Source: Elusimicrobia bacterium RIFOXYD2_FULL_34_15 | GTDB lineage: Bacteria; Elusimicrobiota; UBA8919 | Length of the DNA: 64,000 nt | NCBI GenBank assembly: GCA_001800605.1 | Contig: MGVS01000097.1 | Location: forward strand, 12,694 to 76,693 | Direction of reading: 5' to 3' | Shown here: piece by piece, positions 5,459 to 54,842 of the stretch | Position numbering within the stretch: the stretch's first letter is position 1 | How the letters are laid out: each line of letters starts with the position of its first letter | Translations under genes and position numbers: made by a program | The notes under the pieces: generated by a model | What the model was told of the DNA's origin: nothing | The model's database searches: none | The model's input: only the letters and a program-made list of their open reading frames with translations

Positions 5459-5629
5459 TCAAATTCTTTCAATACCTTCCGTACGCTTGTACAAATACGA
5501 CTGCATTCTACTACTTGGAGTAAACGAATAATATGCGTTGTAATCCACGCACCCGCACGTAGAAAATATCGTGATAGAGCAGCTGTACCAGTTCTTAAAA
5601 CATTTTACTGCCTTTTCAACTTTATTCAT
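5459..5629 (-). CDS. Cys-rich 56-aa micro-ORF (MNKVEKAVKCFKNWYSCSITIFSTCGCVDYNAYYSFTPSSRMQSYLYKRTEGIERI), not in the ORF track
   Basis: Its ATG overlaps the TGA of the upstream 927-aa gene in an ATGA arrangement, suggesting translational coupling. Four Cys in 26 residues. No homology is recognisable by eye. Confidence 0.3.
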   Translation of the reverse strand: MNKVEKAVKCFKNWYSCSITIFSTCGCVDYNAYYSFTPSSRMQSYLYKRTEGIERI

Positions 5630-14813: not shown

Positions 14814-14912
14814 ATTATTAAATATTTAATAAATACTCTTATCAACCACAGTTATTTTTTCTTTTTCCTTCAATGCGCTCGTTACTCATTACCCATTACC
14901 CGTTACTTCTTA

Positions 14913-33048: not shown

Positions 33049-33174
33049 AACATTTGGCAAAGCTTACGCTTTGCTGCTACATATTTCAGAACTCCCTCAT
33101 TTCTATGAACTACGAACTCTTTATTTGCATTTTCCACCTCCCTCTCTCTCGAAGAGACCCGTTTATACGGGACT

Positions 33175-33345
33175 AATAACAAATAGGTTTCCTGACTTAG
33201 GTTTTTTGGAATTTCACCTTCCCAGTTCGCCATAGCGACCAGTGGCATTTAAAATTCCCTGCTCCAAATCATTGGAGCATCACCATTACAGTAGCGGGAC
33301 TGTTCCCGAATTTTATCCTTAGACTCCGCTCAGGATAAGCACGGG
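33175..33345 (-). promoter_or_regulatory. Cobalamin (AdoCbl) riboswitch aptamer
   Basis: Minus strand reads ...AAttcGGGAAcaGTCCCGCtACTGTaAtgg...GCCACTGGtcgctatggcgaaCTGGGAAGGTGAAATTCC...AAGTCAGGAaACCTatt. These are the conserved cobalamin-riboswitch core blocks (the CCCGC.ACTGT block, GCCACTG, GGGAAGG, and a B12 box at 33183-33198). Confidence 0.72.
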
Positions 33346-33370
33346 ATTCTCTATTTTGTTAATTTTTATA

Positions 33371-34096
33371 TCACTTTATATTTAACAATATTAACACTAA
33401 CACTTCTGAAATTTCGTTTATCGCACCTAAAGTATCACCGGTAATACCGTTTATTTTCTTTTTAACATATTTTGTAAATATATATGAGAATACTGAAATA
33501 AACAGAAATATTATAATACCTTTAAATTGAAAAACAAAGGTAGTTATTAAAAATGTAATTATTCCTGATATAACAAAATCTTTTTTTGAAATATTACTTA
33601 AAAAGTAATTTCCCAAACCGGTTTCCTTTGCCGGTTTTGATATTCCCATTGATAAAACCATAGCCCATCTTCCAAGAACCGGAAACAAAATTAAAGATGA
33701 ATTGAACAAAGCAGTATCAATATTATTTAATAAAACAAATTTTGAAAGTATTACCAATGCAATACCAATAACTCCCATAGTACCGATATGACTATCATTC
33801 ATAACTTCTAGTATTTCATCTTTATTTTTTCCGGCATATAAACCGTCAAGCGAATCTGCTAGTCCGTCTAAATGCAAACCACCGTTAATTATTATTGTTA
33901 CGGTAATAATCAATAAATCAACTACTATTTTATAAAACACAAATGAGCAACCAAATTTAATTAGAACAAGAATTCCGCCGATAAAAAGTCCGACAACCGG
34001 GAAAAAAGGCAATATATGTTTTATCCCCTGCCTGTATTTTTTTGGCACAGGTATTATTGTCAGAAAACTAATAGCTGAAAATAAATAATTAATCAT
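33371..34096 (-). CDS. cobS: Adenosylcobinamide-GDP ribazoletransferase (cobalamin synthase)
   Basis: 241 aa polytopic membrane protein. Begins MINYLFSAISFLTIIPVP with the conserved DGLAD...GDxxG motif. Confidence 0.88.
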   Translation of the reverse strand: MINYLFSAISFLTIIPVPKKYRQGIKHILPFFPVVGLFIGGILVLIKFGCSFVFYKIVVDLLIITVTIIINGGLHLDGLADSLDGLYAGKNKDEILEVMNDSHIGTMGVIGIALVILSKFVLLNNIDTALFNSSLILFPVLGRWAMVLSMGISKPAKETGLGNYFLSNISKKDFVISGIITFLITTFVFQFKGIIIFLFISVFSYIFTKYVKKKINGITGDTLGAINEISEVLVLILLNIK

Positions 34097-34139
34097 AAAT
34101 TTGCTTACCTTTTACCCGTTACCCATTACTCGTTACCCG

Positions 34140-35207
34140 TTACTGTTTTGTACTTACTCCTGCACTCTCAAATGTCGCCATCTCATCTAAAATTTTAAGC
34201 GAAACATCTATTAAATTCATTGCTAATGCTGAACCCGTTCCTTCACCTAACCGCATACCTAAATTTAAAAGCGGTTTTAAATTTAAATATTCAAGCATAA
34301 TTCTATGCCCTGGCTCTTTTGAACTATGCGCTGCAATCCAATACTGTTTAGCTAATGGTGAAATTTTGTCAGCTATCAAAGCGGCTGCTCCGGATATAAA
34401 GCCATCGATAACAACAGGTATTTTGTAGCTTGCACCTGCAATCATTATACCTGCTAAACCGCCGATTTCATATCCGCCTATCTTTGATAAAATATCGATT
34501 CCGTCATTAAAATCCGGTTTATTTTTTTCTATACCTCTTTTTATAACATCAATTTTATTTTGTAATGCTTTATCATCAATACCTGTTCCCCTGCCGGTTA
34601 CTTTTTCAGGTTCAATATTACAAATCACCGATGCTATGGCTGCAGATGGCGTTGTATTTCCTATGCCCATATCACCCGTTCCAATCAAATCTATTCCGCC
34701 ATTTTTAACTTCTTCTTCAACAAGTTCAATACCTATCTCAATTGACTTAATCGCTTCTTCTCTTGTCATTGCAGGTCCTTTAGTAAAATTCTTCGTCCCA
34801 AAACCAATTTTTTTAACTTTTAACTTTTCACTTTTAACTTGCAGTTCTTCTCCTACTCCCATATCCACAACAACTACTTTTGCTCCAACATGCCTTGCAA
34901 GAACATTTACTCCAGCACCGCCGTTTATAAAATTGTAAACCATCTGGGGTGTTACTTCTTTTGGATATGCGGAAACCCCTTCCTCAACAACGCCGTGGTC
35001 CCCTGCAAGCGTAAAAATAGTTTTATTTTTCAATGAGGGCTTATCTTTTCCTATAATTGCAACTATTTGTTTTGCAACATCTTCGAGTTGTCCCAAAGAA
35101 CCAAGCGGTTTAGTTAAACTATCAAGCCGTTTTTGAGTTTTATCTAAAAGTACTTTATCTAGCGGTTTAGTATTCCTAATAATTTCTTCTATTTTCTTAC
35201 TTGTCAT
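34140..35207 (-). CDS. cobT: Nicotinate-nucleotide--dimethylbenzimidazole phosphoribosyltransferase
   Basis: 355 aa. CobT fold with GEGTG and GGAA motifs. Confidence 0.88.
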   Translation of the reverse strand: MTSKKIEEIIRNTKPLDKVLLDKTQKRLDSLTKPLGSLGQLEDVAKQIVAIIGKDKPSLKNKTIFTLAGDHGVVEEGVSAYPKEVTPQMVYNFINGGAGVNVLARHVGAKVVVVDMGVGEELQVKSEKLKVKKIGFGTKNFTKGPAMTREEAIKSIEIGIELVEEEVKNGGIDLIGTGDMGIGNTTPSAAIASVICNIEPEKVTGRGTGIDDKALQNKIDVIKRGIEKNKPDFNDGIDILSKIGGYEIGGLAGIMIAGASYKIPVVIDGFISGAAALIADKISPLAKQYWIAAHSSKEPGHRIMLEYLNLKPLLNLGMRLGEGTGSALAMNLIDVSLKILDEMATFESAGVSTKQ

Positions 35208-38224: not shown

Positions 38225-38275
38225 TGCCTACCGTCAGGCAGGTCTGTGTAATCTCTTTTCTTAATCTGTGTAATC
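38225..38275. repeat. cctgcctaccgtcaggcagg hairpin followed by two copies of (A/G)TCTGTGTAATC, 22 bp apart, immediately upstream of btuC
   Basis: 12-mers at 38242-38253 and 38264-38275. Confidence 0.8.
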
Positions 38276-39095
38276 AGTGATTTTTGGATTTTTCAAAAAT
38301 CACTTTATACAAAATATCCATACCTTCAATAATTCGCGGTCCGGGCCTTAAAAATATATCAGGATTGATATTTGCAATTATTCTATTATTTTTTACAGCA
38401 TCAACCGATTCCCATCCCCGCCTTAAAACATTATCCTTATCCTGCATACTTAGAACAACAATCCATTCCGGGTTCTTATTAATTATTGATTCTGCGGTTA
38501 TCTGACAATACGGCAAGGGTAAATCTTTAAAAACATTCTCACAACCGACAATATCAAAAATATCATTTATAAAAGTATCTTTGTTCACTGTCATAAATGG
38601 TTTCGAATAAATCTCAATAAACACCCTTGGTTTCTTTTTGATTTTTTCTGTTTTACTTTTATAATAATTAATTTTACCTTTAATTTTATTAACTAATGAT
38701 TCAGCTTCTTTATTTCTTCCTGTAACATCTCCGATTTTTTTTATAGAAACTATAATCCCTTTAATCGTTTTTGGGTCAACACAAAATATATTAAGTCCTA
38801 GACCTTTCAGTTTTTGATTTAATTTATTTTGCTCCTGATCTGTTGTAAAAATAATATCCGGCTTTAGTGAAAATATCTTTTCAATATCCGGATTACTAAA
38901 TGAACCCACCTTTTCTTTGTTTTTTACTTCAGGCGGATAATTGCAATAAGTTGTAACCGCTACAATATTTTTATCCAGGCCTAATGCAAATAAAATCTCG
39001 GTTGTTGCAGGAGTAAGGGAAATTATTCTCATTTCTTTTTCCGCAAAAAGAAAATCCCCATATAAAAATAAACAAAGTATTATTAAATTCTTCAT
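38274..39095 (-). CDS. btuF: Periplasmic corrinoid/siderophore-type substrate-binding protein (BtuF-like)
   Basis: The class III SBP fold begins at MKNLIILCLFLYGDFLFA, a signal peptide. The track start at 39185 adds 30 residues that are repeat-derived, so the start is moved to 39095. Confidence 0.8.
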   Translation of the reverse strand: MKNLIILCLFLYGDFLFAEKEMRIISLTPATTEILFALGLDKNIVAVTTYCNYPPEVKNKEKVGSFSNPDIEKIFSLKPDIIFTTDQEQNKLNQKLKGLGLNIFCVDPKTIKGIIVSIKKIGDVTGRNKEAESLVNKIKGKINYYKSKTEKIKKKPRVFIEIYSKPFMTVNKDTFINDIFDIVGCENVFKDLPLPYCQITAESIINKNPEWIVVLSMQDKDNVLRRGWESVDAVKNNRIIANINPDIFLRPGPRIIEGMDILYKVIFEKSKNH

Positions 39096-39252
39096 ATTAA
39101 AAACGTAATGTTGAGTAAAGCAACTTAATTCGAGATTCTTCTCCAGATAAATCGGGATCAGAATGACGTCCAAACAAGATGTCATGCTGAGCTATAGTGA
39201 AGCATCTCGACTTATATTCATTATTATAAATATCAATTCTTCTACTTTTTAA

Positions 39253-39264
39253 ATCTGTGTAATC
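39253..39264. repeat. 12-mer ATCTGTGTAATC
   Basis: Exact match, between cobO and btuF. Confidence 0.8.
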
Positions 39265-39271
39265 GTAGTAA

Positions 39272-39784
39272 TTAATATTCGATGCCTTTTCTACATTTAA
39301 CACCTTTTCTATACGGGTGTTTGATTTCTTTTATCTCGGAAACTAAATCTGCTATCTTTATTAATCCTTTTGGAGCATTACGTCCTGTTATAACTACTTC
39401 CATGCTTTTTGGTCTTTTTTCCAATAACGAAATTATCTTTTTAATATCAATGAATTTACCGCAGAGTGCGATATTAAATTCATCCAAAACTAATAAATTA
39501 TAGCTTTTTTCTTTAAATATTTTTTCAATTAATTCTACCGCTTTTTCACATTCCGATTTAACAAATTCTTGCTTTACATTTTTATAAAAACACGGATGCT
39601 TTGGTGTAAAAGAATACATTTTTAAATTCTTTTGTTTTTTTAAAATATTTTGTTCTCCATAATATGCTTTATCTTTAAAAAACTGAACTAAGCAAACTTT
39701 CATTCCGTGTCCCAATGCTCTTATAACCAAACCTACAGCACAGGTTGTCTTGCCTTTTCCGTTTCCGGTATAAATTTCAATCAT
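39272..39784 (-). CDS. cobO: Cob(I)yrinic acid a,c-diamide adenosyltransferase (CobO/BtuR/CobA type)
   Basis: 170 aa. Begins MIEIYTGNGKGKTTCAVGLVIRALGHG, the P-loop typical of CobA/BtuR. Confidence 0.85.
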   Translation of the reverse strand: MIEIYTGNGKGKTTCAVGLVIRALGHGMKVCLVQFFKDKAYYGEQNILKKQKNLKMYSFTPKHPCFYKNVKQEFVKSECEKAVELIEKIFKEKSYNLLVLDEFNIALCGKFIDIKKIISLLEKRPKSMEVVITGRNAPKGLIKIADLVSEIKEIKHPYRKGVKCRKGIEY

Positions 39785-39800
39785 AGTTTGCTCCCTTATT

Positions 39801-39958
39801 AACCCGCCACTGATGCGCCTCCGCCAGTTGGCGGATGGCGGACCGTTGCATGCCCACCTACGCTTTCTTGTCCGCCAAAGTTTCAGTGGCGGAAGTGGCG
39901 GAAGTTGTGGGGCGGGTTAACCCGCCACTGATGCGTTGGCGGGTTAATTTTTGGCAAA
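39801..39958. repeat. Cluster of GC-rich palindromic elements (cccgccactgatgcg..., ccgccaaagtttcagtggcggaagtggcgg, cccgccactgatgcgttggcggg)
   Basis: Multiple CCGCC...GGCGG hairpins. Shares a family with 40177-40231 and 1323-1397. Confidence 0.7.
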
Positions 39959-39960
39959 GC

Positions 39961-40135
39961 CAAAAATTAAAAAAACCTAGCTCTGAGAAGAGTTAGGCTA
40001 ACTAAACTTTCTCCCCTCGGAGTTTTCGTAACTGATAGACCGGGCTTTACCGTTGCGGGGCAGCTTCCGAATTCCCATTTATACTGAGCAACGTCGAACG
40101 TATCAATGGGTCACGGAATTCCTTCAATTACAAAT
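39961..40135 (-). ncRNA. Candidate structured leader RNA, possibly a divergent cobalamin-type riboswitch, ending in an intrinsic terminator, upstream of the cobO-btuFCD-cobU-cobT-cobS operon
   Basis: Minus strand reads ttgaaGGaattCCgtg...tatAAatGGGAAttcGGaaGctgCCCCGCaACgGTaAAGcccgg... This partly resembles the GGGAA...CCCGC.ACTGTAA core of cobalamin riboswitches. It ends in CCTAaCTCTtctcAGAGcTAGG plus TTTTTTTAATTTTTT (39961-39996). No clear B12 box. Confidence 0.35.
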
Positions 40136-40176
40136 TATTTTAAAAACGATTAAAACTGATTAAAAGAACTGATTAT

Positions 40177-40231
40177 TCACCCGCCAAAGATTCCTTGTCC
40201 GCCGATGTTTTAGTGGCGGAAGTGGTGGGCA
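40177..40231. repeat. GC-rich palindromic element (ccgccaaagattccttgtccgccgatgttttagtggcggaagtggtggg)
   Basis: Family member, see 39801-39958. Confidence 0.65.
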
Positions 40232-40282
40232 TAGATTATTATATAAAAATCAAAAAACAAGTCAAGTGAAAAAAATTTATAC

Positions 40283-40340
40283 TGCCGCCTTTGGCGAGCC
40301 TCGCCCCCTTGGGGCGGGAGCCAAACCAAGTCGAAGTATC
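40283..40340. repeat. Direct repeat copy 1 (ctgccgcctttggcgagcctcgcccccttggggcgggagcc...agtcgaagtatc)
   Basis: About 85% identical to 45623-45685. Together they bracket the PHP-PhoH2-RNase J-GIY-YIG block. Confidence 0.75.
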
Positions 40341-41211
40341 AAGAAAAAAATTGGGTATCCACTTTTTTTAAACTATCTCTGCATTTCTTTAAGTCTTCAA
40401 GCACCTCATATTTAACCTTAACAGTGCCCATTATCGCAGGCATACCCTTCAACATAACACCGTGACAATCGGAACCGCCCGTAGCCGCTACTTCAAGCTT
40501 TTCAGCCATTTTTTTTAATTTTTCAGTATCGCTTGTCGAATGTTTTATATGCCAGACTTCAATTCCTTTTAATCCTAGATTGACTAATGATTTAATTTTA
40601 TTATAAGTGATACTGTTGCAGTGCGGGTGAGCTAAAACAGGAATGCCTCCGACATGTAATATCATTTTTATTGCTTCGTCAGGTGCCAGACGCAATTTTG
40701 GAACATAAGCGGGTTTTCCATACCCCAGATATTTTATAAATGCCTCGCTTATATTTTTTACAACTTGTGTTTCAACTAAAACTTTTGCGAAATGAAGACG
40801 TCCGAAAACACCGATACCAACAATTTCTGATAGTCTTTTTTCATTAACATCAATTCCCAGTTTCTTTAATTTTTCAGAAATCTGGTTTGCTCTCTGTAAC
40901 CGTGCTTTCTGGAATATTTTTAATTTTTGCTGAAAGAAAGAATCTTCCCAGTTCATGAAATAACCCAAAATATGCATTTCCTGTTCGGAAATGCTTTGTA
41001 GTGCTACCGATAATTCAACACCCGGTATTATTTCAATATCTAATTTTTTACCTTCTGCTATTGCTTCTGGAAGTCCGTCTGTGGTATCATGGTCGGTTAT
41101 ACTTATTGCGGTAAGCCCAACACTTTTTGCGTATTTTACTGCTTCTTCCGGGGAGAAAGCTCCGTCAGAATATTTGGTGTGTACATGCAAGTCAACATAA
41201 CTGTTTTCCAT
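40339..41211 (-). CDS. PHP-domain phosphoesterase (TrpH/YciV, RNase AM-like)
   Basis: 290 aa. Begins VDLHVHTKYSDG, the PHP N-terminal His motif. Confidence 0.8.
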   Translation of the reverse strand: MENSYVDLHVHTKYSDGAFSPEEAVKYAKSVGLTAISITDHDTTDGLPEAIAEGKKLDIEIIPGVELSVALQSISEQEMHILGYFMNWEDSFFQQKLKIFQKARLQRANQISEKLKKLGIDVNEKRLSEIVGIGVFGRLHFAKVLVETQVVKNISEAFIKYLGYGKPAYVPKLRLAPDEAIKMILHVGGIPVLAHPHCNSITYNKIKSLVNLGLKGIEVWHIKHSTSDTEKLKKMAEKLEVAATGGSDCHGVMLKGMPAIMGTVKVKYEVLEDLKKCRDSLKKVDTQFFS

Positions 41212-42543
41212 TTATAACAATTCTCCGGCTAAAGCAGCCAGATTTGACCTTTCTGTTTTCTTGAAACTTATATGTCCGTAAATCTCCTGACCTTTGAACC
41301 TTTCAACAAGATAAGTAAGCCCGTTTGATTCCGCATCAAGGTACGGATTATCAATTTGATATGGATCGCCGGTTAATACAACTTTGGTACCTTCGCCTGC
41401 TCTGGAAATTATAGTTTTTATTTCATGAGGCGTAAGATTTTGGGCATCGTCTATAACAATGTACTGTTTCGGCAAACTACGCCCTCTTAAATAAGCGAGT
41501 ACTTCAATTTCTATTTTTCCGCTGTCAAAAAAATACTGAACCTTATCTTCCGTGGTTTCGTCCGGGTTGCTTTTATCAACTAAATATTCCAGATTATCAT
41601 ATATTGAACCCATCCATTGCGACATCTTTTCTTCTTTTGTTCCCGGCAAATAACCGATATCTTTCCCTACCGGAGTCACCGACTTCCCAACCAAAAGCCG
41701 CCTATAAATCTTTTCATCAATAGTTTTCTGAAGTCCGGCAGCTAGTGAAAGCAGTGTTTTTCCTGCACCCGGTACCCCTATAAGCGTTACAAGCTGAATA
41801 TTATCCATGAGCAAAAGTTCAAATGCAAACTTTTGTTCAATATTTAACGGTTTTAGTCCCCATATGGGTGATTCTTTATATATCAATGATATCAGCATTT
41901 TTGTTTTTGGATCATATTTAGCAAGCGCAGATTTTGAAGGATTTGCTATATCTTTTAAAATAACAAATTCGTTTGCTGTATATTCGCAAATTGGCAGTTT
42001 ATTTATATCAGTTGCAGGCGGATTTATTGATTTATTCTTGTAGAATTTATCTATAGTCTCAGCATCAACAATAATTTCTTTATAACCCTGATAAAGCTCC
42101 TCCATCTTTATTTTTTCTTTTTCATAATCCTGTGCTTTAATATTTAAAACTTCCGCTTTAATTCTTAAGTTTATATCCTTTGTTATAAATGTTACATTTT
42201 CACCTTTTTTTTGCCTGTTATATGCCGCACAAAGTATAAGATTATCTTTTTTTGAGTTTGAAAAATCGTAAGGCAATTTCATTTCCTGTTCCAGTTCAAT
42301 TATAAGTATTCCGCCATTTTCGAGTGTTATACCCTCGTTGAACTTTCCTTTTTCAGCGAGTTGATTCAGTTTGCGTGAAACATTTCGCGCTGCCCTGCCT
42401 CTTTCATCATGTAATTTTTTTAAATTATCCAATTCTTCTATCACTGCCATTGGTAATACTACAAAATTATCACCAAATGCGGTAAACGCATCCGGGTCAT
42501 GAATCAAAACATTTGTATCCAAAATAAAAGTTTTCTTTGCCAT
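41212..42543 (-). CDS. PhoH2: N-terminal PIN domain fused to a PhoH-like ATPase
   Basis: 443 aa. FILDTNVLIHD is the PIN acidic motif. GVPGAGKT is the Walker A of PhoH. The stop abuts the PHP gene ATG. Confidence 0.85.
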   Translation of the reverse strand: MAKKTFILDTNVLIHDPDAFTAFGDNFVVLPMAVIEELDNLKKLHDERGRAARNVSRKLNQLAEKGKFNEGITLENGGILIIELEQEMKLPYDFSNSKKDNLILCAAYNRQKKGENVTFITKDINLRIKAEVLNIKAQDYEKEKIKMEELYQGYKEIIVDAETIDKFYKNKSINPPATDINKLPICEYTANEFVILKDIANPSKSALAKYDPKTKMLISLIYKESPIWGLKPLNIEQKFAFELLLMDNIQLVTLIGVPGAGKTLLSLAAGLQKTIDEKIYRRLLVGKSVTPVGKDIGYLPGTKEEKMSQWMGSIYDNLEYLVDKSNPDETTEDKVQYFFDSGKIEIEVLAYLRGRSLPKQYIVIDDAQNLTPHEIKTIISRAGEGTKVVLTGDPYQIDNPYLDAESNGLTYLVERFKGQEIYGHISFKKTERSNLAALAGELL

Positions 42544-42638
42544 ATTATTAGAACCTCTCTTTTCAATGTTGCTATTTTACCATTTGACTTATAAAAGTCA
42601 AGAAAAAATATAAAACAACGACTAAGACAGATTAAGTT

Positions 42639-42803
42639 GTCATTGCGAAGCCGATAAAATCGGCTGTGGCAATCCCGAAGGTTGCGAACCTGCCTGACGG
42701 TAGACAGACGGAGTGATCTGTCCTGCGTAGCTTTAGCGAAGTAGGAAGCAATCACATGGGATTGCTTCGTCATCCCGTTTTTTACGGGATTTCTCGCAAT
42801 GAC
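42639..42803. mobile_element. MITE-like element: 165 bp bounded by 10-bp terminal inverted repeats GTCATTGCGA...TCGCAATGAC, with internal palindromes (gccgataaaatcggc, cccgttttttacggg)
   Basis: Perfect 10-bp TIRs at 42639-42648 and 42794-42803. The body is GC-richer than its surroundings and has no coding capacity. Confidence 0.45.
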
Positions 42804-42902
42804 TACACTTGATGAAATATCTAAAAACTATTACCAAAATACTGAACAACTACATTGACGTTAGGCAAGGTCATTTTTGAAAATCTGCTAATCTTTATTT
42901 AT

Positions 42903-44417
42903 TTATACCTCTATTGTTTTTCTCAATATTGAATGTGTTACTTTTGTGCAAAAATCTCCGAACACATCGGCATTTTCAGTATGTACAGGAATAACGCACT
43001 TTGGATTTACATTTTTAATAAACTCTTCTAAATCTTTTCTTGAAACGTGTCCTGATGTATGGGCATATTTCATTTCCAACCCCGTAAGATTTATCCAATT
43101 AACAAGTTTATCGTATGAAAATTCCATTTCTTCATTAAACGGTTCCGCTTTCCCGTAAATATAAGTGCCTTTGATTTTCCCGTTTATCGGCAAAAACTGC
43201 AAAAGCGTAAGCGGTCCGTTTGAAGTATATAAAATATATTTTTCAGGGTTTTTTAAAATTTTATCCCTGCCAATAGGTCCCCATACTATATTACCATCCG
43301 GTATCTTTATTGCATTGGGATGTTTTTCTTCGGCATCCTGTGCAGAAAGTAAAATCCTCTGATAACCGTCCCTTCCGTGAACAAAAGTTTCAATAAACGG
43401 ATTCATAAATGCAAACGGCAGTGCCGAATATTTTTTTGATGTCTTCTTCAACTTCTCACGCCACAAATAAATCTGAAAATCGTCTATAGTAGGCAAATCC
43501 TCTATTAGCTTTTTTTGTTCTTTATAATTAAAATATAAAATAAAATATGCTTTTTTATCATCTAGAACCAGCGTTCTTCCGGTTTCTTTTGCAGCACGCA
43601 CCAGAGTTCTTACTCTGTCAATATCTGCCGGTGATGCGTCATAAATTACCAGCCCTTTTTCACTTCTTGTAAAATCGCAGACAGCTGAAAAAACATCTTC
43701 TTCGGTCTCAAAAACATTTGTATCTTCATTTCTTGAAAGCCGTGTTCCTTCTGTAATTAAAACATCTATCTTTTCCCTGGCAATTTCTTCCATAAAATAT
43801 TCCGTTTCTTTCTGCCTGTAGCCATGAAACCTGAAATCTCCGGAATAAACTATTTTCTTATCTTGAGTTTGAATCAAAAAAGCGCTCGCACCGACAACTG
43901 AATGGTCTACATCAAACCTCTTAACAATTATATTCTTACCGATCTGTATTTCTTCATTAACTTCAAGCGTATTAAAACTTTCCTGTTCAACATCAGCAGC
44001 CCAGTTTTTATTCATATCGCCCCGCAATTTAAGAAATTTCTTAGTAACCCGGGATGAATAAATTGGTATATCCGGTCTTATTAAGCCCAGATAACCCGAA
44101 TGATCCAAATGCCCGTGTGTTAAAAGTATTGCGTCGATTTTTCTTCCCTCAGGACCACCTTCAACTGAAAAATCGCCGTTAGAATTATAATTAACTTTTA
44201 TTCCGGCGCTTTTGTAAAGCCCTTCCATTTCAGGAATTGCACTGATTTTGCGGAGGTCATCTATATTAGTAGGTCTCAGAAGCGGGAATTCAAAATATTT
44301 ACCTTCTGAAGCAAAAGACATTCCAAAATCAAGAAAAATCTTGGTATTACCTTCTTCAAGAAGTATTTTATTACCGCCTATTTCATTTACTCCGCCGTAA
44401 AAAGTTAATTTCGCCAT
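42903..44417 (-). CDS. RNase J-like metallo-beta-lactamase / beta-CASP ribonuclease
   Basis: 504 aa. GGVNEIGGN, THGHLDHSG (HxHxDH), ...GDFRF, ITEGT and AHTSGH beta-CASP motifs. Confidence 0.8.
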   Translation of the reverse strand: MAKLTFYGGVNEIGGNKILLEEGNTKIFLDFGMSFASEGKYFEFPLLRPTNIDDLRKISAIPEMEGLYKSAGIKVNYNSNGDFSVEGGPEGRKIDAILLTHGHLDHSGYLGLIRPDIPIYSSRVTKKFLKLRGDMNKNWAADVEQESFNTLEVNEEIQIGKNIIVKRFDVDHSVVGASAFLIQTQDKKIVYSGDFRFHGYRQKETEYFMEEIAREKIDVLITEGTRLSRNEDTNVFETEEDVFSAVCDFTRSEKGLVIYDASPADIDRVRTLVRAAKETGRTLVLDDKKAYFILYFNYKEQKKLIEDLPTIDDFQIYLWREKLKKTSKKYSALPFAFMNPFIETFVHGRDGYQRILLSAQDAEEKHPNAIKIPDGNIVWGPIGRDKILKNPEKYILYTSNGPLTLLQFLPINGKIKGTYIYGKAEPFNEEMEFSYDKLVNWINLTGLEMKYAHTSGHVSRKDLEEFIKNVNPKCVIPVHTENADVFGDFCTKVTHSILRKTIEV

Positions 44418-44460
44418 AAAATTTTTAGCTATTATATTGTTTCACAATATTCCTAATTAC

Positions 44461-44700
44461 AACACATCAAAAACTGCGGGCTTGCCTGCCGTGGCGGGGC
44501 TTTCGCGCCCCTGCACCCCCGCTAACTTTTCTTTACTTGCCTAAAGCAAAGTTAGCAAAAGAAATGCACCCCGATGGCTATTTCACTCCTAATTTTTCGG
44601 CAACTGTGGAACTTGCCCTTCGGCTTCGCCAGGATGGGCTTCGGACAGTCCTCGCTGACTACCCCGAAAAATTACTCGCTCATTGACAACCATAAGGGGG
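44461..44700 (-). ncRNA. GC-rich structured island, candidate small RNA or repeat-derived element (function unknown)
   Basis: About 240 nt at roughly 55% GC within roughly 30% GC surroundings. It has a long imperfect hairpin, GCTAACTTTgctttaggcaagtaaagaaAAGTTAGC, a GGGGCgcGAAAgcCCCC GNRA-type hairpin and a terminal T-run. No tmRNA, RNase P or SRP signatures were recognised. Confidence 0.2.
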
Positions 44701-44723
44701 ACAATTCAACTTCATTCTTTAAA

Positions 44724-45557
44724 CTATTCTTCTTTAGCCAAGTTATCGTTTATTGTACTTCCATCTTTTTTCTTCCATTCAGCAAGTCCATTTGCGTTTC
44801 TACCCATTACGATAGCTGCTGCCGTTGATGGACTGGAAAAAAGATAATCTTGTGTAAAAATCCAATCTTTTATAATACCTTCAGATGTTAGTTTATTCCT
44901 TTTATTTTTAAAACTAATTGTTATAGAAGGAACTTCTGTAGTAGCAATTTTAGAATTCTTGAGAACTACGAATCCCTCGGAAGTAATCATTCCTTCTGCA
45001 TGTGCCCCGCGAGTAGCTGAAATATAATATCGATCTTGATTTGAATGATTACTCTCAATAAGTTTTTCAAATATTTTATATCCCATTGTACCAACAAGTA
45101 ATTGTAAATTTTTTGAAAATTCTAACATTACAGCTTGATCAGCCTCAGAAATTGCAGGTTCAGTAGGAGTATTATCATTAATTATTTTATATCTTTTAGC
45201 ATCTTTTGCTTGAATATAAAGTCTATATTCAAGAAATTTTACATGTGCTTTATTTAGATTCTCATCTTTGCTAATAAAAGCTAATGCTTCTGACCAAAAA
45301 TCTTTTTCTTGATGTTGGAAAATTCTTTTTAATACTTCTTCAGATTCACCAATATAAACACATTCATTATCATTTTCATCACGACCTATTAAAAAATAAA
45401 TACCTGCTTTTTTCAATTCAGACCTATCTGATGCATTTTTTAATTTATTTTTTGGAATTCTATATCCTTTTCCAGTCCAATTTAATATCTCACAAGCAAT
45501 AATACCATCTGGTGTACCATCAATTAAAAATAGAGATATTGCTTTTCCACTTGCCAT
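44724..45557 (-). CDS. GIY-YIG nuclease-domain protein with a DUF4357-like C-terminal region
   Basis: ...AGIYFLIGRDE...VYIGESEEVLKRIFQH is GIY-YIG-like. AGGAGG lies 7 nt before the ATG at 45557. The track start at 45617 reads through the palindromic element ccaaccccgggttgg. Confidence 0.7.
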   Translation of the reverse strand: MASGKAISLFLIDGTPDGIIACEILNWTGKGYRIPKNKLKNASDRSELKKAGIYFLIGRDENDNECVYIGESEEVLKRIFQHQEKDFWSEALAFISKDENLNKAHVKFLEYRLYIQAKDAKRYKIINDNTPTEPAISEADQAVMLEFSKNLQLLVGTMGYKIFEKLIESNHSNQDRYYISATRGAHAEGMITSEGFVVLKNSKIATTEVPSITISFKNKRNKLTSEGIIKDWIFTQDYLFSSPSTAAAIVMGRNANGLAEWKKKDGSTINDNLAKEE

Positions 45558-45584
45558 TGTAATTCCTCCTAATATCAACTTCCG

Positions 45585-45685
45585 CCAAGTTCCAACCCCG
45601 GGTTGGAACTTTGGCAACTTGTCTGCCGCCTATGGCGAGCCTAGCCCCTTTGGGGCGGGAGCCTATTAAGCAGTCGAAGGATTAT
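45585..45685. repeat. Palindrome ccaaccccgggttgg plus direct repeat copy 2 (ctgccgcctatggcgagcctagcccctttggggcgggagcc...cagtcgaaggatt, 45623-45685)
   Basis: See 40283-40340. Confidence 0.75.
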
Positions 45686-46519
45686 TCACTTAAGAAGTAT
45701 TCTTGCTATTTCATTCCAATCTGATACGTAAGTAACATTTGGAATTACTTTTTCTTCCTTGCCTATTTTTATAACTTTCATATTGTTTGCAAGATATGCT
45801 TCTGTATCGGTGTCTCTATCGCCGATACCAATTGATATATTATCCCATATTTGTTTTAATTTTTTAATTCTTTCTGTTTTATATTTTGCTGAACTTAAAG
45901 GATAATCGCCTAAATCCCAAAAAAATACAGGGACATCCGGAAATTTATTCATTTTTAACCAATTTTCCGTTTTCCAGAGAAATACCTCTTCTCTTTTTGT
46001 TACAAAAACAATATCGTATTTTTGGGAAAGTTTTTGCAGAACTTCCGGAGCGTTTTTAAGAGGTAAAACATCTTTATTCGGCTTAGTCACGTATCCGAAC
46101 CAGCTTACATCAGCTACAGTATGGTCAATATCAACAATGATAGCAGGTCTCTTTTTATAAGAACAAAATACTTTTGCTGATATTGAGTTTGAAATATAAC
46201 CGGAAGCCGTTGATAGTTTTACATTTAGTTCAAATATACCCGGTTTATTGATTGTATACGGTAAAAAGGCAAAACCCTCATTATTAGTTATAGATTCTCC
46301 TATGCTTTTGTTATTAATATAAAAAAAAATCTTCTCATTTTTAATATCCGGTCTTAAAAATAAAATATTCTTTTCTAATTTTGCTCTGAAAATAACTTTT
46401 TCACCGGGAACGGTTATTAAATCATATGCAACCAATCTTGCCGGTTTTTGTGTTTCTGCAAAAAGAATATTAAAACTGCACAAAATCAATATACTGAATA
46501 ATATATTTTTTTTACTCAT
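45686..46519 (-). CDS. Secreted HAD-superfamily (App1/LNS2-like, DxDxT) phosphatase
   Basis: 277 aa. Signal peptide. IVDIDHTV is the DxDxT motif. GDRDTD is the distal Asp motif. Confidence 0.55.
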   Translation of the reverse strand: MSKKNILFSILILCSFNILFAETQKPARLVAYDLITVPGEKVIFRAKLEKNILFLRPDIKNEKIFFYINNKSIGESITNNEGFAFLPYTINKPGIFELNVKLSTASGYISNSISAKVFCSYKKRPAIIVDIDHTVADVSWFGYVTKPNKDVLPLKNAPEVLQKLSQKYDIVFVTKREEVFLWKTENWLKMNKFPDVPVFFWDLGDYPLSSAKYKTERIKKLKQIWDNISIGIGDRDTDTEAYLANNMKVIKIGKEEKVIPNVTYVSDWNEIARILLK

Positions 46520-46645
46520 ATCAACTTTTTATAACTTCCGCCAATTCACTATATTGATGATTTTACAATTATTCACTAAAAATTGCAAGGTAATGAAAAA
46601 AGGATTGTATTTTTGAAGATGTAATTTGCAGATACGTTTAAATAA

Positions 46646-46900
46646 TTAAGTTTTTATCAATACCAGTTTTTTACTTCGTGGCAAACTTTTTATTTCACTT
46701 TCACGTTTCAATGCAGATGATCTGTTGGGATGTTTTTCTGAATAGACACATTTAACAGGTATTTTATTAGATGTGTATTTTGCTCCGTTGCCTTTGTTAT
46801 GTTCGTTAATTCTTCTATTTAAATCAGTTGTAATTCCTGTATAGAGTGTATTATTGGAACATTTTAAGATATAGACAAGGTAGGGTGTGGCTTTTGCCAT
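46646..46900 (-). CDS. Small GIY-YIG nuclease superfamily protein (UPF0213 / YhbQ-like)
   Basis: 84 aa, begins YLVYILKCSNNTLYTGITTDLNRRINEHN. Confidence 0.8.
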   Translation of the reverse strand: MAKATPYLVYILKCSNNTLYTGITTDLNRRINEHNKGNGAKYTSNKIPVKCVYSEKHPNRSSALKRESEIKSLPRSKKLVLIKT

Positions 46901-46942
46901 ATTAGTAAAGTTTTATACTAAAATTCGCGGGATTAAAAATTT

Positions 46943-47013
46943 GAGCGGGTGATGGGAATCGAACCCACGTTTCAAGCTTGGGAAGCTTGCATACTACCAT
47001 TGTACTACACCCG
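46943..47013 (-). tRNA. tRNA-Gly (anticodon CCC)
   Basis: Minus strand: GCGGGTGTAGTACAATGGTAGTATGCAAGCTTCCCAAGCTTGAAACGTGGGTTCGATTCCCATCACCCGCT. 7-bp acceptor stem, anticodon loop TTCCCAA, T-loop GGTTCGATTCC. Confidence 0.85.
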
Positions 47014-47073
47014 CAGAAATTCAATTAAAAATTAAAAATTAGAAATTCAAAATTGTGGTTGTTTTTTATTTAA

Positions 47074-47106
47074 TCCCCGCCAGCCACTAAGTCATTGGCG
47101 GGTAAA
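47074..47106. repeat. GC-rich palindromic element (cccgccagccactaagtcattggcggg)
   Basis: Stem CCCGCCA / TGGCGGG, family of 690-712. Confidence 0.65.
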
Positions 47107-47116
47107 CAATAATTCA

Positions 47117-48019
47117 TTATTTTGCAAATTCGGTTATGTCCTGGAATATCATACCGCTGCCTGCAAGTTTGCCGAATTTATTTTTTATTAATATCGTACC
47201 GTAACCTATCAGAATTCGTTTATCTGTTTTAACAACTAAAAACACTTCCTGCCTGTTTTGTATTTGCTGGTTCATAAAAGCATCAAAAAGTATAGACGGT
47301 ACTTCCGGTTGTCTTATGAATACATCTTTTGCATATTTACCGACTGCCGATGATTTGTTAATTCCCAATATATTCTGCGCCTGAGAATTGAATACGGTTA
47401 TTTTTCCTTCTTTATCTGTAGCTATAAAACCGCCGGGTATACTTTCAATTATATTTTCCACATATTCTTTTGAATATATCATCTCCTGATATAAATCCGA
47501 ATTTTCAAGAGTCATGGCGATGTTGCTTGCAACAGTAATAAGAAATTCTTTATCTAATTCGTCAAAATCAGTTTTTTTATTTATAATTTCAATTACACCG
47601 TAATTTCTATTTTTATGTACGATAGGTACACAAAGTATATTCTTTGCAGTGATTCCGGCAAGAGCATCAACTTCCTTTGAATAATAAGAATTTTTCTGAG
47701 GATCGTTCAATATTTCCGCCTTACCTATTTGAGCTATCCAACCGATCAGTCCGAACCCTAATCTGTGCTTAAGACGCTCCTCTCTTTTAATTATTCCTTC
47801 TTTATGCTTACCTATACTTGTCAAACATGTCAGTTGTTTCTGTTCAAGATCTGATGTATAAATTGTCGCAGTTTCAACTTCAAGCGTAGATAAAACAACC
47901 GTTAATACTTTTCCTGATGATTCTTTAAGTGTCAACCTAAAGCTCAAAAAGAAAGCAATTTCATGAAGTGCTTTTAAATGCTCAATTTCCTTTTTCTTTA
48001 CTGCCGGTATGTATTCCAT
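47117..48019 (-). CDS. GAF-PAS sensor protein without a recognisable output domain
   Basis: 300 aa. GAF-like N-terminal region and a PAS-like C-terminal part (...GGFIATDKEGKITVFNSQAQNILG...). Confidence 0.6.
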   Translation of the reverse strand: MEYIPAVKKKEIEHLKALHEIAFFLSFRLTLKESSGKVLTVVLSTLEVETATIYTSDLEQKQLTCLTSIGKHKEGIIKREERLKHRLGFGLIGWIAQIGKAEILNDPQKNSYYSKEVDALAGITAKNILCVPIVHKNRNYGVIEIINKKTDFDELDKEFLITVASNIAMTLENSDLYQEMIYSKEYVENIIESIPGGFIATDKEGKITVFNSQAQNILGINKSSAVGKYAKDVFIRQPEVPSILFDAFMNQQIQNRQEVFLVVKTDKRILIGYGTILIKNKFGKLAGSGMIFQDITEFAK

Positions 48020-48062
48020 AAATGAACCAAGTTAAAATTCATGTATATTTTCTTATCAATGT

Positions 48063-48125
48063 ACAATTCTCCGCCCCTAAGGGGCGAGACCCTGACTACC
48101 GTTAGGCAGGCTCGCCCATCGGGCG
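48063..48125. repeat. Direct repeat A (ccgcccctaaggggcgagaccctgactaccgttaggcaggctcgcccatcgggcgggc)
   Basis: Differs by 2-3 nt from 49617-49682. The two copies bracket the cca gene precisely. Confidence 0.8.
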
Positions 48126-48167
48126 GGCTCAAAAACACTATCGCACTATTTTTCTAATTATATAAAA

Positions 48168-49610
48168 TTATTTGGTTTTTACAATAGTTTTTAGAAATTT
48201 TATTGCTTCTTCCCTTGTTTTTACTTCTTTAGTTACTTGCGATTCTTCAAGTTTTTTAAGTAATTGTCCGACTTCAGGACCTTGTTCAATTTTTAATATT
48301 TTCATTATTTCATTACCATTTAAAAGTTTTACAGGAAGTATCTTTTCTTTTTTATAAAAATACTTATTCAGCAATTTATTGCCGACTATTCTGTGAAGTG
48401 TCCGTATATTACTTGGTGGATACGTATAAGCATCGCAGATTGATAAAACAATCTGATCTATACCATCTTCACCTAAATCCTTAAAAAATCTCCATACAGC
48501 TTTATCGGTTACTTCTTTTGCACTTGTAAGGTTTCCTAAACGCATATGGTTCTGGATAACTTTTTTTATATATTTTATTTCGTCATTTGAAAACCTTAAC
48601 CTTTTCCCTATTTTATCAATCATTTTGCTTCCCACATCTTCATGCCCGAAAAATCTCAATCTATCACCAATTTTTTCGGCAGATCCGGGTTTTCCTATAT
48701 CGTGTAAAAGCACCGCGTATTTCAAAATTGTTTTCCTTTTTACTGTTCTTGAAATATTACCGTCAAGATGCATCATTATTTTTTTATTGAATCTTGGAAA
48801 AATGTTTTTAAAATTATTTTTATAAAACTTCTCGAGCACTTTCAATGAATCAAAACAATGCCCCAGAAGCCCCATTTTGGGGTAATAACACCTTGCTGTA
48901 TGCCTGGTCGGAATTAACTCCGGAAATATATAATCCAATAATTTCGAATTATGCATTTTCAATATAATGGAATGACTATCTGATAATCCCATTATTAGAT
49001 TTAATTCGTAACTTATTCTTTCTACAGATACTTTTTTTATATATTTCGCATATTTTTTTATAAATTTTTCTGTTTTTGGTTCAATTTTAAAATTTAATTG
49101 CCCGGCAAACCTGTACGCTCTTAAAACTCTTAACGGATCATCAACAAAGTTTTTTTCTTCAATACATCTTATAACCTTGTTCTTTATATCAACTCGTCCA
49201 TCATAAGGATCAATAAGATCGGTAACGGGTAACGCGTAATCCCGAGAAGTCGGGACAGGCTGGGTAATGGGTATCGCAATGGCATTGATAGTAAAATCAC
49301 GTCTTGTTAAATCTTCGATAATATTTTTGCCCTGCATTTTTGAGAAATCGAAGGTTTTGCCATTAATAATCACACGGTAAATTTTGTTGAAGTCGTCTAA
49401 AATTATGAATTTTCCTTTTACTTTTTCGGCAAATGTTTGTGCAACTTTCTGCGTATTGCCGTCAGTAACAAAATCCATATCTTCCGAGATTTTATTAAAA
49501 TACAAATCCCTGATATAGCCCCCGACAATCCAGATATTTTCTTTAGTTTTTAAGTATTTTAATATATCAATATTATTCATAAATAACCTTGCACTATCAC
49601 CCCACCCCAC
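48168..49610 (-). CDS. cca: CCA-adding enzyme / tRNA nucleotidyltransferase (Pol-beta head plus HD domain) carrying an in-frame repeat-element insertion
   Basis: 480 aa. GGYIRD...D.D, the RRDFTINAIA motif and the HD domain LLHDIGK. An extra 19-aa loop (IPITQPVPTSRDYALPVTD) lies between INAIA and LIDPYDG. Confidence 0.85.
   Translation of the reverse strand: MGWGDSARLFMNNIDILKYLKTKENIWIVGGYIRDLYFNKISEDMDFVTDGNTQKVAQTFAEKVKGKFIILDDFNKIYRVIINGKTFDFSKMQGKNIIEDLTRRDFTINAIAIPITQPVPTSRDYALPVTDLIDPYDGRVDIKNKVIRCIEEKNFVDDPLRVLRAYRFAGQLNFKIEPKTEKFIKKYAKYIKKVSVERISYELNLIMGLSDSHSIILKMHNSKLLDYIFPELIPTRHTARCYYPKMGLLGHCFDSLKVLEKFYKNNFKNIFPRFNKKIMMHLDGNISRTVKRKTILKYAVLLHDIGKPGSAEKIGDRLRFFGHEDVGSKMIDKIGKRLRFSNDEIKYIKKVIQNHMRLGNLTSAKEVTDKAVWRFFKDLGEDGIDQIVLSICDAYTYPPSNIRTLHRIVGNKLLNKYFYKKEKILPVKLLNGNEIMKILKIEQGPEVGQLLKKLEESQVTKEVKTREEAIKFLKTIVKTK
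49218..49274. repeat. RPE-like palindromic element inserted in frame within cca (inverse orientation)
   Basis: The reverse complement, atacccattACCCAGCCTGTCCCGActtcTCGGGATTACgCGTTACccgttacc, matches the intergenic copies at 22150-22215 and 36385-36440. It encodes residues 113-131 of Cca. Confidence 0.85.
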
Positions 49611-49616
49611 AATCGC

Positions 49617-49682
49617 ACAATCTTCCGCCCCAAAGGGGCGAGACCCTGACTACCGTTAGGCAGGCTCGCCCATAGGGCGGGC
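49617..49682. repeat. Direct repeat B (ccgccccaaaggggcgagaccctgactaccgttaggcaggctcgcccatagggcgggc)
   Basis: See 48063-48125. Confidence 0.8.
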
Positions 49683-53728: not shown

Positions 53729-53765
53729 CTGTATCCTGTATCCTGTATCCTGTATTCTGTGTACT
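53729..53765. repeat. Tandem 7-mer repeats (CTGTATC x3, then CTGTATT, CTGTGTA) at the oppB-oppC junction
   Basis: On the coding strand this reads GGATACAG x3, ending 9 nt before the oppC ATG. Confidence 0.7.
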
Positions 53766-53768
53766 GCC

Positions 53769-54740
53769 TTATTTGTATCTTATCCTTGGGTCTACATAAG
53801 CATATGCTATATCTGCCAATAAATTTCCTAAAAGTGTCAAAATAGCTACTATTGTACCGACACACATGATAACAGGATAATCTCTTGACATTATCGCTTC
53901 GTAACCAAGCCGGCCCATCCCAGGCCATGCAAATATTGTTTCAAAAATAAAAGAACCGCCAATTAAATCGGGTAGAGTAAGCCCGACAATTGTAACTACC
54001 GGAATAAGTGCATTTTTCAAAGCATGCTTGAATATTACCGTGTTTTCCGGTAGACCTTTTGCTCTGGCAGTTCTTATATAATCCTGATGCAAGACTTCAA
54101 GCATAGATGATTTTGTGTATCTTGAAAGTCCCGCAAGACCTGTGAACGCAGATATAAGAACCGGAAGAACCAGATGCCTTAAGATATCAAGAAGTTTTCC
54201 AATAATTGTAAGTTCATCAAAATTTATTGAACGAAATCCGGAAATAGGAAGCCATCCTAATTGAACACCGAATAAAATCATTAGAAGTATAGCAAGCCAA
54301 AACGTGGGAATCGAAAACCCTAAAAATACGGTAACAGTTGTTATTTTGTCAAAAAGAGTATCTTTTTTTACGGCAGAAAATACACCAATTGGAATTGCAA
54401 GTGCAAAAATAAGAATTATTGAACAAAAATTTAAAAGGAGCGTTACGGGCAACCTTTCTGCTATTTTTTTTATAACCGGCCTGTCATCTTTGAAAGATTT
54501 TCCGAAATCAAATTTTGCCAGCCGTTTAAGCCACATCCCGTATTGAACATAAAACGGTTTATCCAACCCATAAAGAGTTACTAACCTTTGCTTTGCTTCG
54601 GTTGTAATTTTCTGGTTCATATCTGTTAGAACATCAGTTGGTTTTCCGGGAGAAAGATGCATAACAAGAAATGTAATTACAGTTATACCGAAAATAACCG
54701 GAATTGTAAGTAACAATCGTCTAAAAATATAAGTTTTCAT
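53769..54740 (-). CDS. oppB: Oligopeptide ABC transporter permease OppB
   Basis: 323 aa. DppB/OppB-type permease. Confidence 0.85.
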
Positions 54741-54798
54741 TTTAAAGGCAGATCACAGTATACAGTACTCAGGATTCAGCTTTATGAATTATAAAAAG

Positions 54799-54842
54799 CT
54801 GTATGCTGTTTTCTGTATTCTGTATCCTGTATCCTGTGTACT
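54799..54842. repeat. Tandem 7-mer repeats (CTGTATG/CTGTTTT/CTGTATT/CTGTATC x2/CTGTGTA) at the oppA-oppB junction, with a partial inverse copy at 54758-54777
   Basis: Forms a potential long hairpin in the oppA-oppB intercistronic region. Confidence 0.65.

Follow-up and report, generated by a model that had tools for sequence, protein, structure and literature searches.

The described systems closest to the sequence studied here are the repetitive extragenic palindromic and bacterial interspersed mosaic elements (REP/BIME), ERIC, RUP/BOX/SPRITE and transposable elements of the miniature inverted-repeat kind (MITEs). These are small, non-coding, hairpin-forming elements with short terminal inverted repeats, which are present in many intergenic copies, often past stop codons and clustered with other repeats, and for which filled and empty sites are found (PMC10969869). 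The GC-rich double-hairpin element analysed in this study shares these features, but differs in having no Rfam match, in its unit of two adjacent GC-rich hairpins within a 34% GC genome, and in a second-hairpin core that is conserved across phyla. Two copies of it, A and B, are present in a 64-kb stretch of DNA (the window) from Elusimicrobia bacterium RIFOXYD2_FULL_34_15 (proteins on record OGS43839-44), which has a GC content of 33.7% and carries nearly all of its genes on the minus strand. The two copies flank a block of four genes upstream of the corrinoid operon that begins with cobO, and an original prediction had taken this block for a mobile or defence-type island delimited by the repeats.

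The block is very probably an overlay of two MITE/REP-like element copies, three vertically inherited RNA-metabolism genes and a variable slot 3' of tRNA-Gly(CCC). Of these, the element is both mobile and dispersed, the three nuclease genes are ancestral and the tRNA-Gly slot varies. The combination is an ordinary one, of dispersed repeats with hairpins, RNA nucleases with housekeeping functions and a small accessory slot adjoining a tRNA. Its main components are the following:

40276-40340, plus strand: copy A of the GC-rich double-hairpin element (~62-68 nt), in the spacer from the PHP stop codon to the cobO promoter; 80.4 bits.
45617-45685, plus strand: copy B of the same element, in the spacer from the HAD stop codon to the DUF4357 gene start; 82.3 bits.
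40339-41211, minus strand: core gene for a PHP-domain phosphoesterase (Pfam PHP) of the RNase AM / 3',5'-bisphosphate phosphatase clade; its start abuts the PhoH2 stop.
41212-42543, minus strand: core gene for a PIN-PhoH2 RNA helicase/RNase with PIN + PhoH architecture (Pfam).
42903-44417, minus strand: core gene for an RNase J-like nuclease with metallo-beta-lactamase (MBL), beta-CASP and RMMBL domains (Pfam), 67-84% conserved upstream of PhoH2 in five relatives.
44724-45557, minus strand: accessory gene for a GIY-YIG/DUF4357 nuclease of 277 aa, a member of PADLOC family PDC-S14.
44452-46933: variable slot of ~2.5 kb from the tRNA-Gly 3' end to the beta-CASP start, marked by a collinearity break against the sister lineage and by contents that differ in six lineages.
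46943-47014, minus strand: tRNA-Gly(CCC), the anchor of the variable slot, in the same place in every relative spanning the region (L004, L006, L090, L137).

The repeats had been described as about 85% identical and as bracketing the four genes, and this was confirmed: copies A and B were identical at 52 of 61 aligned columns (85%) and shared one, direct orientation. The pairwise alignment spanned 40282-40340 in copy A and 45623-45683 in copy B, and the covariance model extended these to 40276-40339 and 45617-45682. In the 41-nt core, CTGCCGCCTWTGGCGAGCCTMGCCCCYTTGGGGCGGGAGCC, 38 of 41 positions (93%) were identical between the copies. A search for a 30-nt core pattern, allowing at most 3 mismatches, found only copies A and B in the 64-kb window, and 100 shuffles gave 0 matches. 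Copy A ends 2 nt past the PHP stop codon and copy B 6 nt past that of the HAD gene. The element unit consists of terminal inverted repeats ATCCT...AGGAT, a first hairpin CGCC-NNN-GGCG, a second hairpin CCUCGCCCC-NNN-GGGGCGGG, and a tail of ~20 nt ending in GTCGAAGGAT. The termini of copy A are ATAC...GTAT in place of ATCCT...AGGAT, with the pairing retained. A three-helix model of the element gave standard pairs in 97.5% of cells. The hairpins had a folding energy of -24 to -28 kcal/mol, which was no better than that of shuffled sequences (z -0.5 to -1.8). No Rfam family matched the repeat, or the two other repeats of the block described below (a MITE-like element and a GC-rich island), even at E values up to 1.

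A scan of metagenomes with the hairpin-2 core returned 38 stretches. Full-length units were found on 8 low-GC contigs of one metagenome (Ga0208246), with two copies on one contig, which gave at least 9 further copies with the consensus yCCTGCCGCCTATGGCGAGCCTCGCCCCTTTGGGGCGGGAGCyTATTAAGTAGTCGAAGGAT. These units were up to 96% identical to copy B, scored 53-95 bits with covariance model R1, and all had different flanks. Their contigs also carried other repeat families of the window, and the same metagenome holds the closest sister lineage of the window. Every one of the 11 sites in the window and Ga0208246 was intergenic; the GTCGAAG tail was directed toward the 3' end of a co-directional gene at nine of these, and the element was inverted at the other two. 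In L104, two inverted copies lie 6 kb apart around genes for a PHP protein, an MBL-TPR protein, a TPR protein, GNAT and TsaB, between ArgG and YfhO; the enclosed genes are ordinary and form no island. In L118, the element is located 22 nt past a stop codon and 32 nt ahead of the next start. The repeat core had 0 matches in the GTDB representative genomes, which do not include the source genome, and 0 matches in viral contigs. A diverged cousin of the element was also observed in L006 (7566-7617), where it abuts the tRNA-Gly 3' end; its first hairpin, CGCC-TTT-GGCG, is kept and its second hairpin differs.

Relatives were labelled by metagenome or genome locus, and the closest sister lineage was L137-L142, with a PhoH2 at least 90% identical to that of the window. 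The sister was collinear with the window, at 78-84% nucleotide identity, across the genes for the CCA-adding enzyme, GAF-PAS protein, tRNA-Gly, beta-CASP nuclease, PhoH2, PHP protein and cobO. The 58-nt element was absent throughout 21 kb of the sister, including both orthologous sites. At the site of copy A, the sister has an AT-rich terminator-like hairpin (GGAACATCTGTTCC followed by a T-rich tail), and the adjoining cobO promoter is conserved. The order beta-CASP-PhoH2-PHP-cobO was kept in five relatives (L004, L006, L011, L090 and L137), none of which had the element at its borders. PHP was found directly after PhoH2 in 18 distinct Elusimicrobiota relatives, including Endomicrobium proavitum, which has a reduced genome, and in more distant relatives the beta-CASP gene was unlinked to PhoH2. 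No relative had a DUF4357 or HAD homologue within 10 kb of the locus. Copies A and B were also considered as substrates for excision of the block; no sign of excision was found, and the independent assemblies L001 and L095 support only the window arrangement.

The identities originally given to the four genes (PHP, PIN-PhoH2, beta-CASP and GIY-YIG/DUF4357) agree with Pfam, for which the open reading frames (ORFs) of window positions 38274-49610 were scanned, with NCBIfam and with relatives in the PDB. For the PHP protein, the NCBIfam RNase AM and 3',5'-bisphosphate phosphatase scores (166 against a cut-off of 375, and 184 against 400) lay below equivalog level, and its PDB relatives were 2yb1 and 7ug9; the predicted assignment is valid at clade level only. 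PhoH2 scored 274 bits with NF053827 (RNA 5'-3' helicase PhoH2, cut-off 680), and its PIN + PhoH architecture was present. Its identity was 60-93% among Elusimicrobiota and no lower than 48% in several other phyla. The beta-CASP protein scored 105 bits with TIGR00649 (RNase J), below the cut-off of 400, and its best PDB relative was the uncharacterised EF2904; from these comparisons the gene is judged RNase J-like and not an RNase J orthologue.

The composition of the four genes was compared with a baseline of 51 window genes, with a GC content at third codon positions (GC3) of 24.6 +/- 3.2%. A deviation was seen for DUF4357 (GC3 12.2%, z -3.8, the most extreme of the window genes), and the PHP, PhoH2 and beta-CASP genes were within 1.5 sd. 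The result with PADLOC divided the genes in the same way, with a PDC-S14 match for DUF4357 and marginal partial matches or none for the other three. For these three the order is conserved, the composition native and no PADLOC defence match was obtained, and the reservation made at the outset, that PhoH2 and enzymes resembling RNase J and TrpH might have housekeeping functions, was right. In addition, a conserved RNA-metabolism neighbourhood was observed in the window (47117-49610 and 40339-44417) and in L004, L006, L090 and L137, consisting of the CCA-adding enzyme, (GAF-PAS), tRNA-Gly(CCC), beta-CASP, PIN-PhoH2 and the RNase AM-like PHP protein. This places a conserved RNA-turnover neighbourhood (CCA enzyme, tRNA-Gly, beta-CASP, PhoH2-PHP) in the phylum Elusimicrobia.

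Window positions 44452-46933 have no counterpart in the sister. Because the collinearity with the sister breaks exactly there, and because the contents differ in six lineages, this slot, and not the block between the repeats, is the real accessory region. It straddles copy B and includes the HAD gene, so that the HAD gene does not serve as the fixed flank it had been taken for. The contents in the six lineages are:

Window: small GIY-YIG gene, HAD and DUF4357.
L004: small GIY-YIG gene and a 1273-aa helicase-nuclease (PADLOC PDC-S37/Hhe-like, E 3e-72).
L011: Translin and a Fic protein (SoFic, E 2e-56).
L006: Translin.
L137: DUF3800 and a 55-aa ORF.
L090: empty (18 nt).

In the window, the two genes that accompany DUF4357 in the slot are:

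45686-46519, minus strand: secreted HAD/LNS2-type phosphatase, of native composition, absent from the slot in all relatives.
46646-46900, minus strand: small stand-alone GIY-YIG protein of 84 aa (Pfam), adjoining tRNA-Gly.

The small GIY-YIG protein had 70% amino acid identity to its counterpart in the more distant relative L004 (3773-4030; 84-85 aa), and was absent in the closest sister. Loss, re-acquisition or homing could account for this history. In L006 and L011, the bacterial Translin homologue lies directly upstream of the beta-CASP gene.

tRNA-adjacent genomic and defence islands are the nearest known parallel to this slot. As in those islands, cargo varies 3' of a tRNA gene, single-gene defence candidates are present and one site is empty. 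The slot differs from them in being tiny (0-4 kb), in the absence of an integrase and of a duplicated tRNA 3' end, and in cargo that is also non-defence (HAD, Translin). A duplication of the tRNA-Gly 3' end, as would be expected for an att-like site, was looked for in the slot and none was found. The slot defines a small tRNA-Gly-adjacent hotspot in Elusimicrobia that exchanges single-gene defence candidates (PDC-S14, PDC-S37-like and SoFic).

The suspicion that the GIY-YIG/DUF4357 gene was of defence type was borne out by a full-length PDC-S14 match, a foreign composition and a patchy distribution of its relatives. The start codon is the ATG at 45557, preceded by AGGAGG; the 277-aa protein read from there has an exact match on record, and the longer protein from the TTG has none. 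The ORF matched the PDC-S14 profile PDLC04925 with an E value of 1.2e-108 (ORF residues 16-292, profile positions 8-294 of 301), and a GIY...YIG...R...E motif was readable in the protein. The next-best homologues were at most 71% identical and came from unrelated taxa, including Desulfobacteraceae and an archaeon. In two distant contexts the homologues were solitary, without beta-CASP or PhoH2 neighbours. The full-length profile match, the motif and the occurrence as a solitary gene in varied contexts are all as in PDC-S14, and this member differs in its origin from an uncultivated Elusimicrobia bacterium, in a family that is a candidate only. Judged from its sequence, DUF4357 is a foreign, horizontally acquired gene of defence type. 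DUF4357 is reported in fusions with GmrSD type IV restriction enzymes, GIY-YIG/T5orf172 nucleases and McrB homologues (PMC4619093, PMC11090510). These fusions make a restriction-like mechanism a reasonable proposal, in which the DUF4357 domain would recognise foreign DNA and the GIY-YIG domain would cut it. An AlphaFold2 model of the protein had a pLDDT of 69 and was confident in the C-terminal domain only. We know of no functional test of PDC-S14.

Further repeats accompany the element in and beside the block:

42636-42806: MITE-like element with 13-nt terminal inverted repeats at 42636-42648 and 42794-42806.
44474-44700 (about): GC island, a mobile repeated element of ~225 nt.
48063-48128 and 49617-49682: D13 family, a pair of 66-nt composite hairpin repeats (94% identical) that brackets the CCA-adding-enzyme gene.

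The inverted repeats already noted for the MITE-like element proved to be 92% complementary over the 13 nt. Two assemblies break at its left terminal repeat. The spacer between the beta-CASP and PhoH2 genes measures 92 nt in the sister against 359 nt in the window, and the MITE-like element together with ~100 nt of flank is absent there. The GC-rich structured island of the first description was also real, and folded modestly better than shuffles (z -2.5). A second, diverged copy (91-92% identity) is present in the window's own genome, adjoining Mut7-C/RecX, and the sister lineage carries an inverted copy at another locus, 89% identical across 223 nt. Contigs break or branch within this element, and contig L001 ends in it. 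The sister precisely lacks the D13 copy at 49617-49682, and the spacer that contains the other D13 copy is not homologous to sister sequence. GC-rich hairpin modules of several families are present in about a dozen intergenic spacers of the window. As they are absent or located elsewhere in the sister, copies A and B, the MITE-like element and the GC island are recent, independent insertions of small mobile elements; the comparison identifies the MITE-like element and the GC island as lineage-specific.

The GC island was also met at other loci. In L137 (13430-14527) it lies between cobO and btuF, and the called BtuF ORF, which runs across it, is 365 aa long, compared with at most 303 aa in the window; the extra length reflects either an extended gene call or an in-frame insertion at the N-terminus. 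In the assembly L094 (10835-11410, compared with window 44418-44723), the GC-island element connects the DUF4357 gene to Mut7-C/RecX/PurH and not to the beta-CASP gene. Either the assembly passed through a repeat with several copies or part of the population is rearranged, and the junction was not taken to bear on the block. A Mut7-C gene is also found beside the distant DUF4357 homologue of L135, perhaps by coincidence.

On the overlay reading, the element family colonises spacers between the genes of this AT-rich Elusimicrobia genome, mostly just past stop codons, and copies A and B are independent lineage-specific insertions that lie 5.3 kb apart by chance. Their GC-rich hairpins, once in a transcript, would behave like REP or terminator structures at the message 3' ends of PhoH2-PHP and HAD. 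The beta-CASP, PhoH2 and PHP genes belong to the conserved neighbourhood of CCA-adding enzyme, tRNA-Gly, beta-CASP, PhoH2-PHP and cobO. The slot carries different small cargo in different lineages, often single-gene defence candidates, and would be a recombination hotspot, in which no integrase and no att duplication were found. Several observations weigh against parts of this account. The additional element copies all come from the same or a sister lineage and not from the window's own assembly, with just two copies in 64 kb. Copies of one family tend to be separated by a few kb, as in the window, in D13 and in L104, which could reflect local copying. About half of the element copies are flanked by AT...AT and the remainder lack a consistent duplication, so that target-site duplications are ambiguous. 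The copies of the narrow family are too alike to give usable covariation, neither window copy was called a terminator by a consensus scan, and no transposase, RAYT or parent insertion sequence was identified for the element, for which no whole-genome search was made. As for the slot, its DUF3800 and Translin genes had no defence-model match, and PDC-S14 itself is only a candidate defence family. A fold search of the DUF4357 protein against the PDB (Foldseek) returned nothing at E < 0.09 and no informative match, and a sequence search of the PDB also returned nothing.

The reading of the four genes as a single mobile or defence island that entered upstream of cobO, bounded by the 58-nt direct repeats as att-like sites or duplication scars, is extremely improbable. 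The repeats do lie on either side of the four genes, in direct orientation, each of the four products is a nuclease or helicase, and one of them (DUF4357) is a PADLOC candidate. However, the order beta-CASP-PhoH2-PHP-cobO in five relatives without repeats, and the dispersal of the repeat at 9 or more unrelated junctions, are the two findings that the original prediction had itself named as decisive against an island. The repeat is also absent from both sites of the sister, even though beta-CASP-PhoH2-PHP is present there, and by synteny the adjacency to cobO is ancestral, which contradicts an insertion of the block upstream of the corrinoid operon. The true presence/absence boundary, 44452-46933, coincides with neither repeat, and no integrase, recombinase or mobility gene was detected by Pfam in the scanned ORFs (38274-49610). 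Three of the four genes are native in composition, only DUF4357 deviating, and DUF4357 homologues elsewhere lack beta-CASP or PhoH2 neighbours. The island interpretation is refuted for all but this one gene. A similar repeat pair around a gene cluster is no evidence of an island where GC-rich hairpin repeats saturate an AT-rich genome, a question that synteny in close relatives resolves quickly. A defence role might instead be sought in the trio alone, with beta-CASP-PhoH2-PHP as a vertically inherited RNA-targeting immune or stress module beside a defence hotspot, and DUF4357 as a recent add-on. The trio does adjoin a slot in which defence candidates recur, some defence systems contain PIN and beta-CASP nucleases, and there was a weak Cas14-type MBL match, far below the cut-off. 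This proposal is nonetheless highly unlikely: PhoH2-PHP is phylum-wide at 60-93% identity and retained in the reduced genome of E. proavitum, PADLOC matches of the trio were marginal and partial at best, the neighbouring CCA-adding enzyme and tRNA fit RNA housekeeping, and more distant relatives lack the linkage of beta-CASP to PhoH2.

The element copies could alternatively be more than selfish DNA, namely host-recruited terminators or 3'-end mRNA stabilisers, which would set how strongly PhoH2-PHP and HAD are expressed and insulate them from the cobO and DUF4357 units, and which would be compatible with a mobile origin. Nine of the 11 sites lie just past a stop codon in one orientation, and copy A takes the place of the sister's AT-rich terminator-like hairpin, with a run of seven T within 8 nt and the conserved promoter just downstream. 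The predicted hairpins are stable, and MITEs with terminator-like functions are documented (PMC10969869). On the other side, two sites are inverted, the folding energies do not exceed those of shuffles, and the copy in L118, because of its short distances to the preceding stop codon and the following start, cannot be an efficient terminator. We regard such recruitment as possible but rather unlikely.

The part of this work that may be new is solely the cross-phylum double-hairpin element. The strict hairpin-2 core, following GCCGCC-[variable palindrome]-GGCG, was found in frame inside long ORFs of other organisms, where it translates as ...AAS..E-ASLAP-x-GRE and, in the inverted orientation, as APAPRGRGS. 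The host genes belong to the candidate phyla radiation (CPR)/Patescibacteria (loci within L098-L134), and are those for TsaD (L134), CysRS (L107), TopA (L105), HolB (L103 and L114), LigA (L119), RecG (L106), trigger factor (L109), TrmD (L120) and YchF (L133). In comparison with solved TsaD and CysRS structures, the core stretch falls in gaps of 15-17 residues. The CysRS host is of a Patescibacteria (Staskawiczbacteria) lineage; of 120 close orthologues of this CysRS, ~105 have a short loop and a few have an insert. These observations are the basis for a tentative proposal, held with less than even confidence, that the 58-nt repeat is part of a superfamily, undescribed so far and spanning phyla, of tiny mobile elements with GC-rich double hairpins, intergenic in Elusimicrobia and in frame in essential genes of co-occurring CPR/Patescibacteria. 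The proposed superfamily core is GCCGCC-[variable palindrome]-GGCGAGCCTCGCCCC-NNN-GGGGCGG. The GC-rich mobile "double-hairpin elements" of fungal mitochondria are also similar. A precedent is that of the Rickettsia palindromic elements (RPEs), which, like the CPR core with its inserts of 15-17 aa, lie in frame in housekeeping genes and vary in presence among close orthologues (PMC10969869). They differ in that RPEs are ~100-150 bp long and restricted to Rickettsia, whereas here the coding unit is ~45 nt, the hosts are Patescibacteria and the copies observed in the window lineage are all intergenic. Literature searches gave no account of such elements for either CPR or Elusimicrobia, which is weak negative evidence. 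If new, the double-hairpin family would extend selfish DNA inside protein-coding genes beyond Rickettsia.

The regulatory sequences in and next to the block were as follows:

42574-42601, minus strand: sigma-70-like promoter of PhoH2-PHP, TTGACT-16-TAAAAT with an extended -10; sequence kept in the sister.
40238-40265, minus strand: sigma-70-like promoter of the cobO operon, TTGACT-16-TATAAT; conserved in the sister.
39988-40169, minus strand: cobalamin-riboswitch-like leader of cobO; 22 bits with RF00174 against a gathering score of 31.5, E 0.017.

The core of the cobO leader was 87-93% conserved upstream of cobO in four relatives, and one loop of the leader carries an insertion of ~37 nt. Because of its position and this conservation, the leader is probably a real, insertion-bearing cobalamin aptamer, although it scores below the Rfam gathering score. 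A canonical cobalamin riboswitch was also present at 33166-33393 on the minus strand. Elsewhere in the window, heptamer tandem repeats were observed in spacers, for example CTGTATC at 53729-53779 and 54792-54856 and TTACCCA-type repeats at 14880-14907 and 34103-34144. A 927-aa ORF (5626-8409) was found to hold three tandem 102-nt repeats at 5733-6088, which were 71-74% identical.

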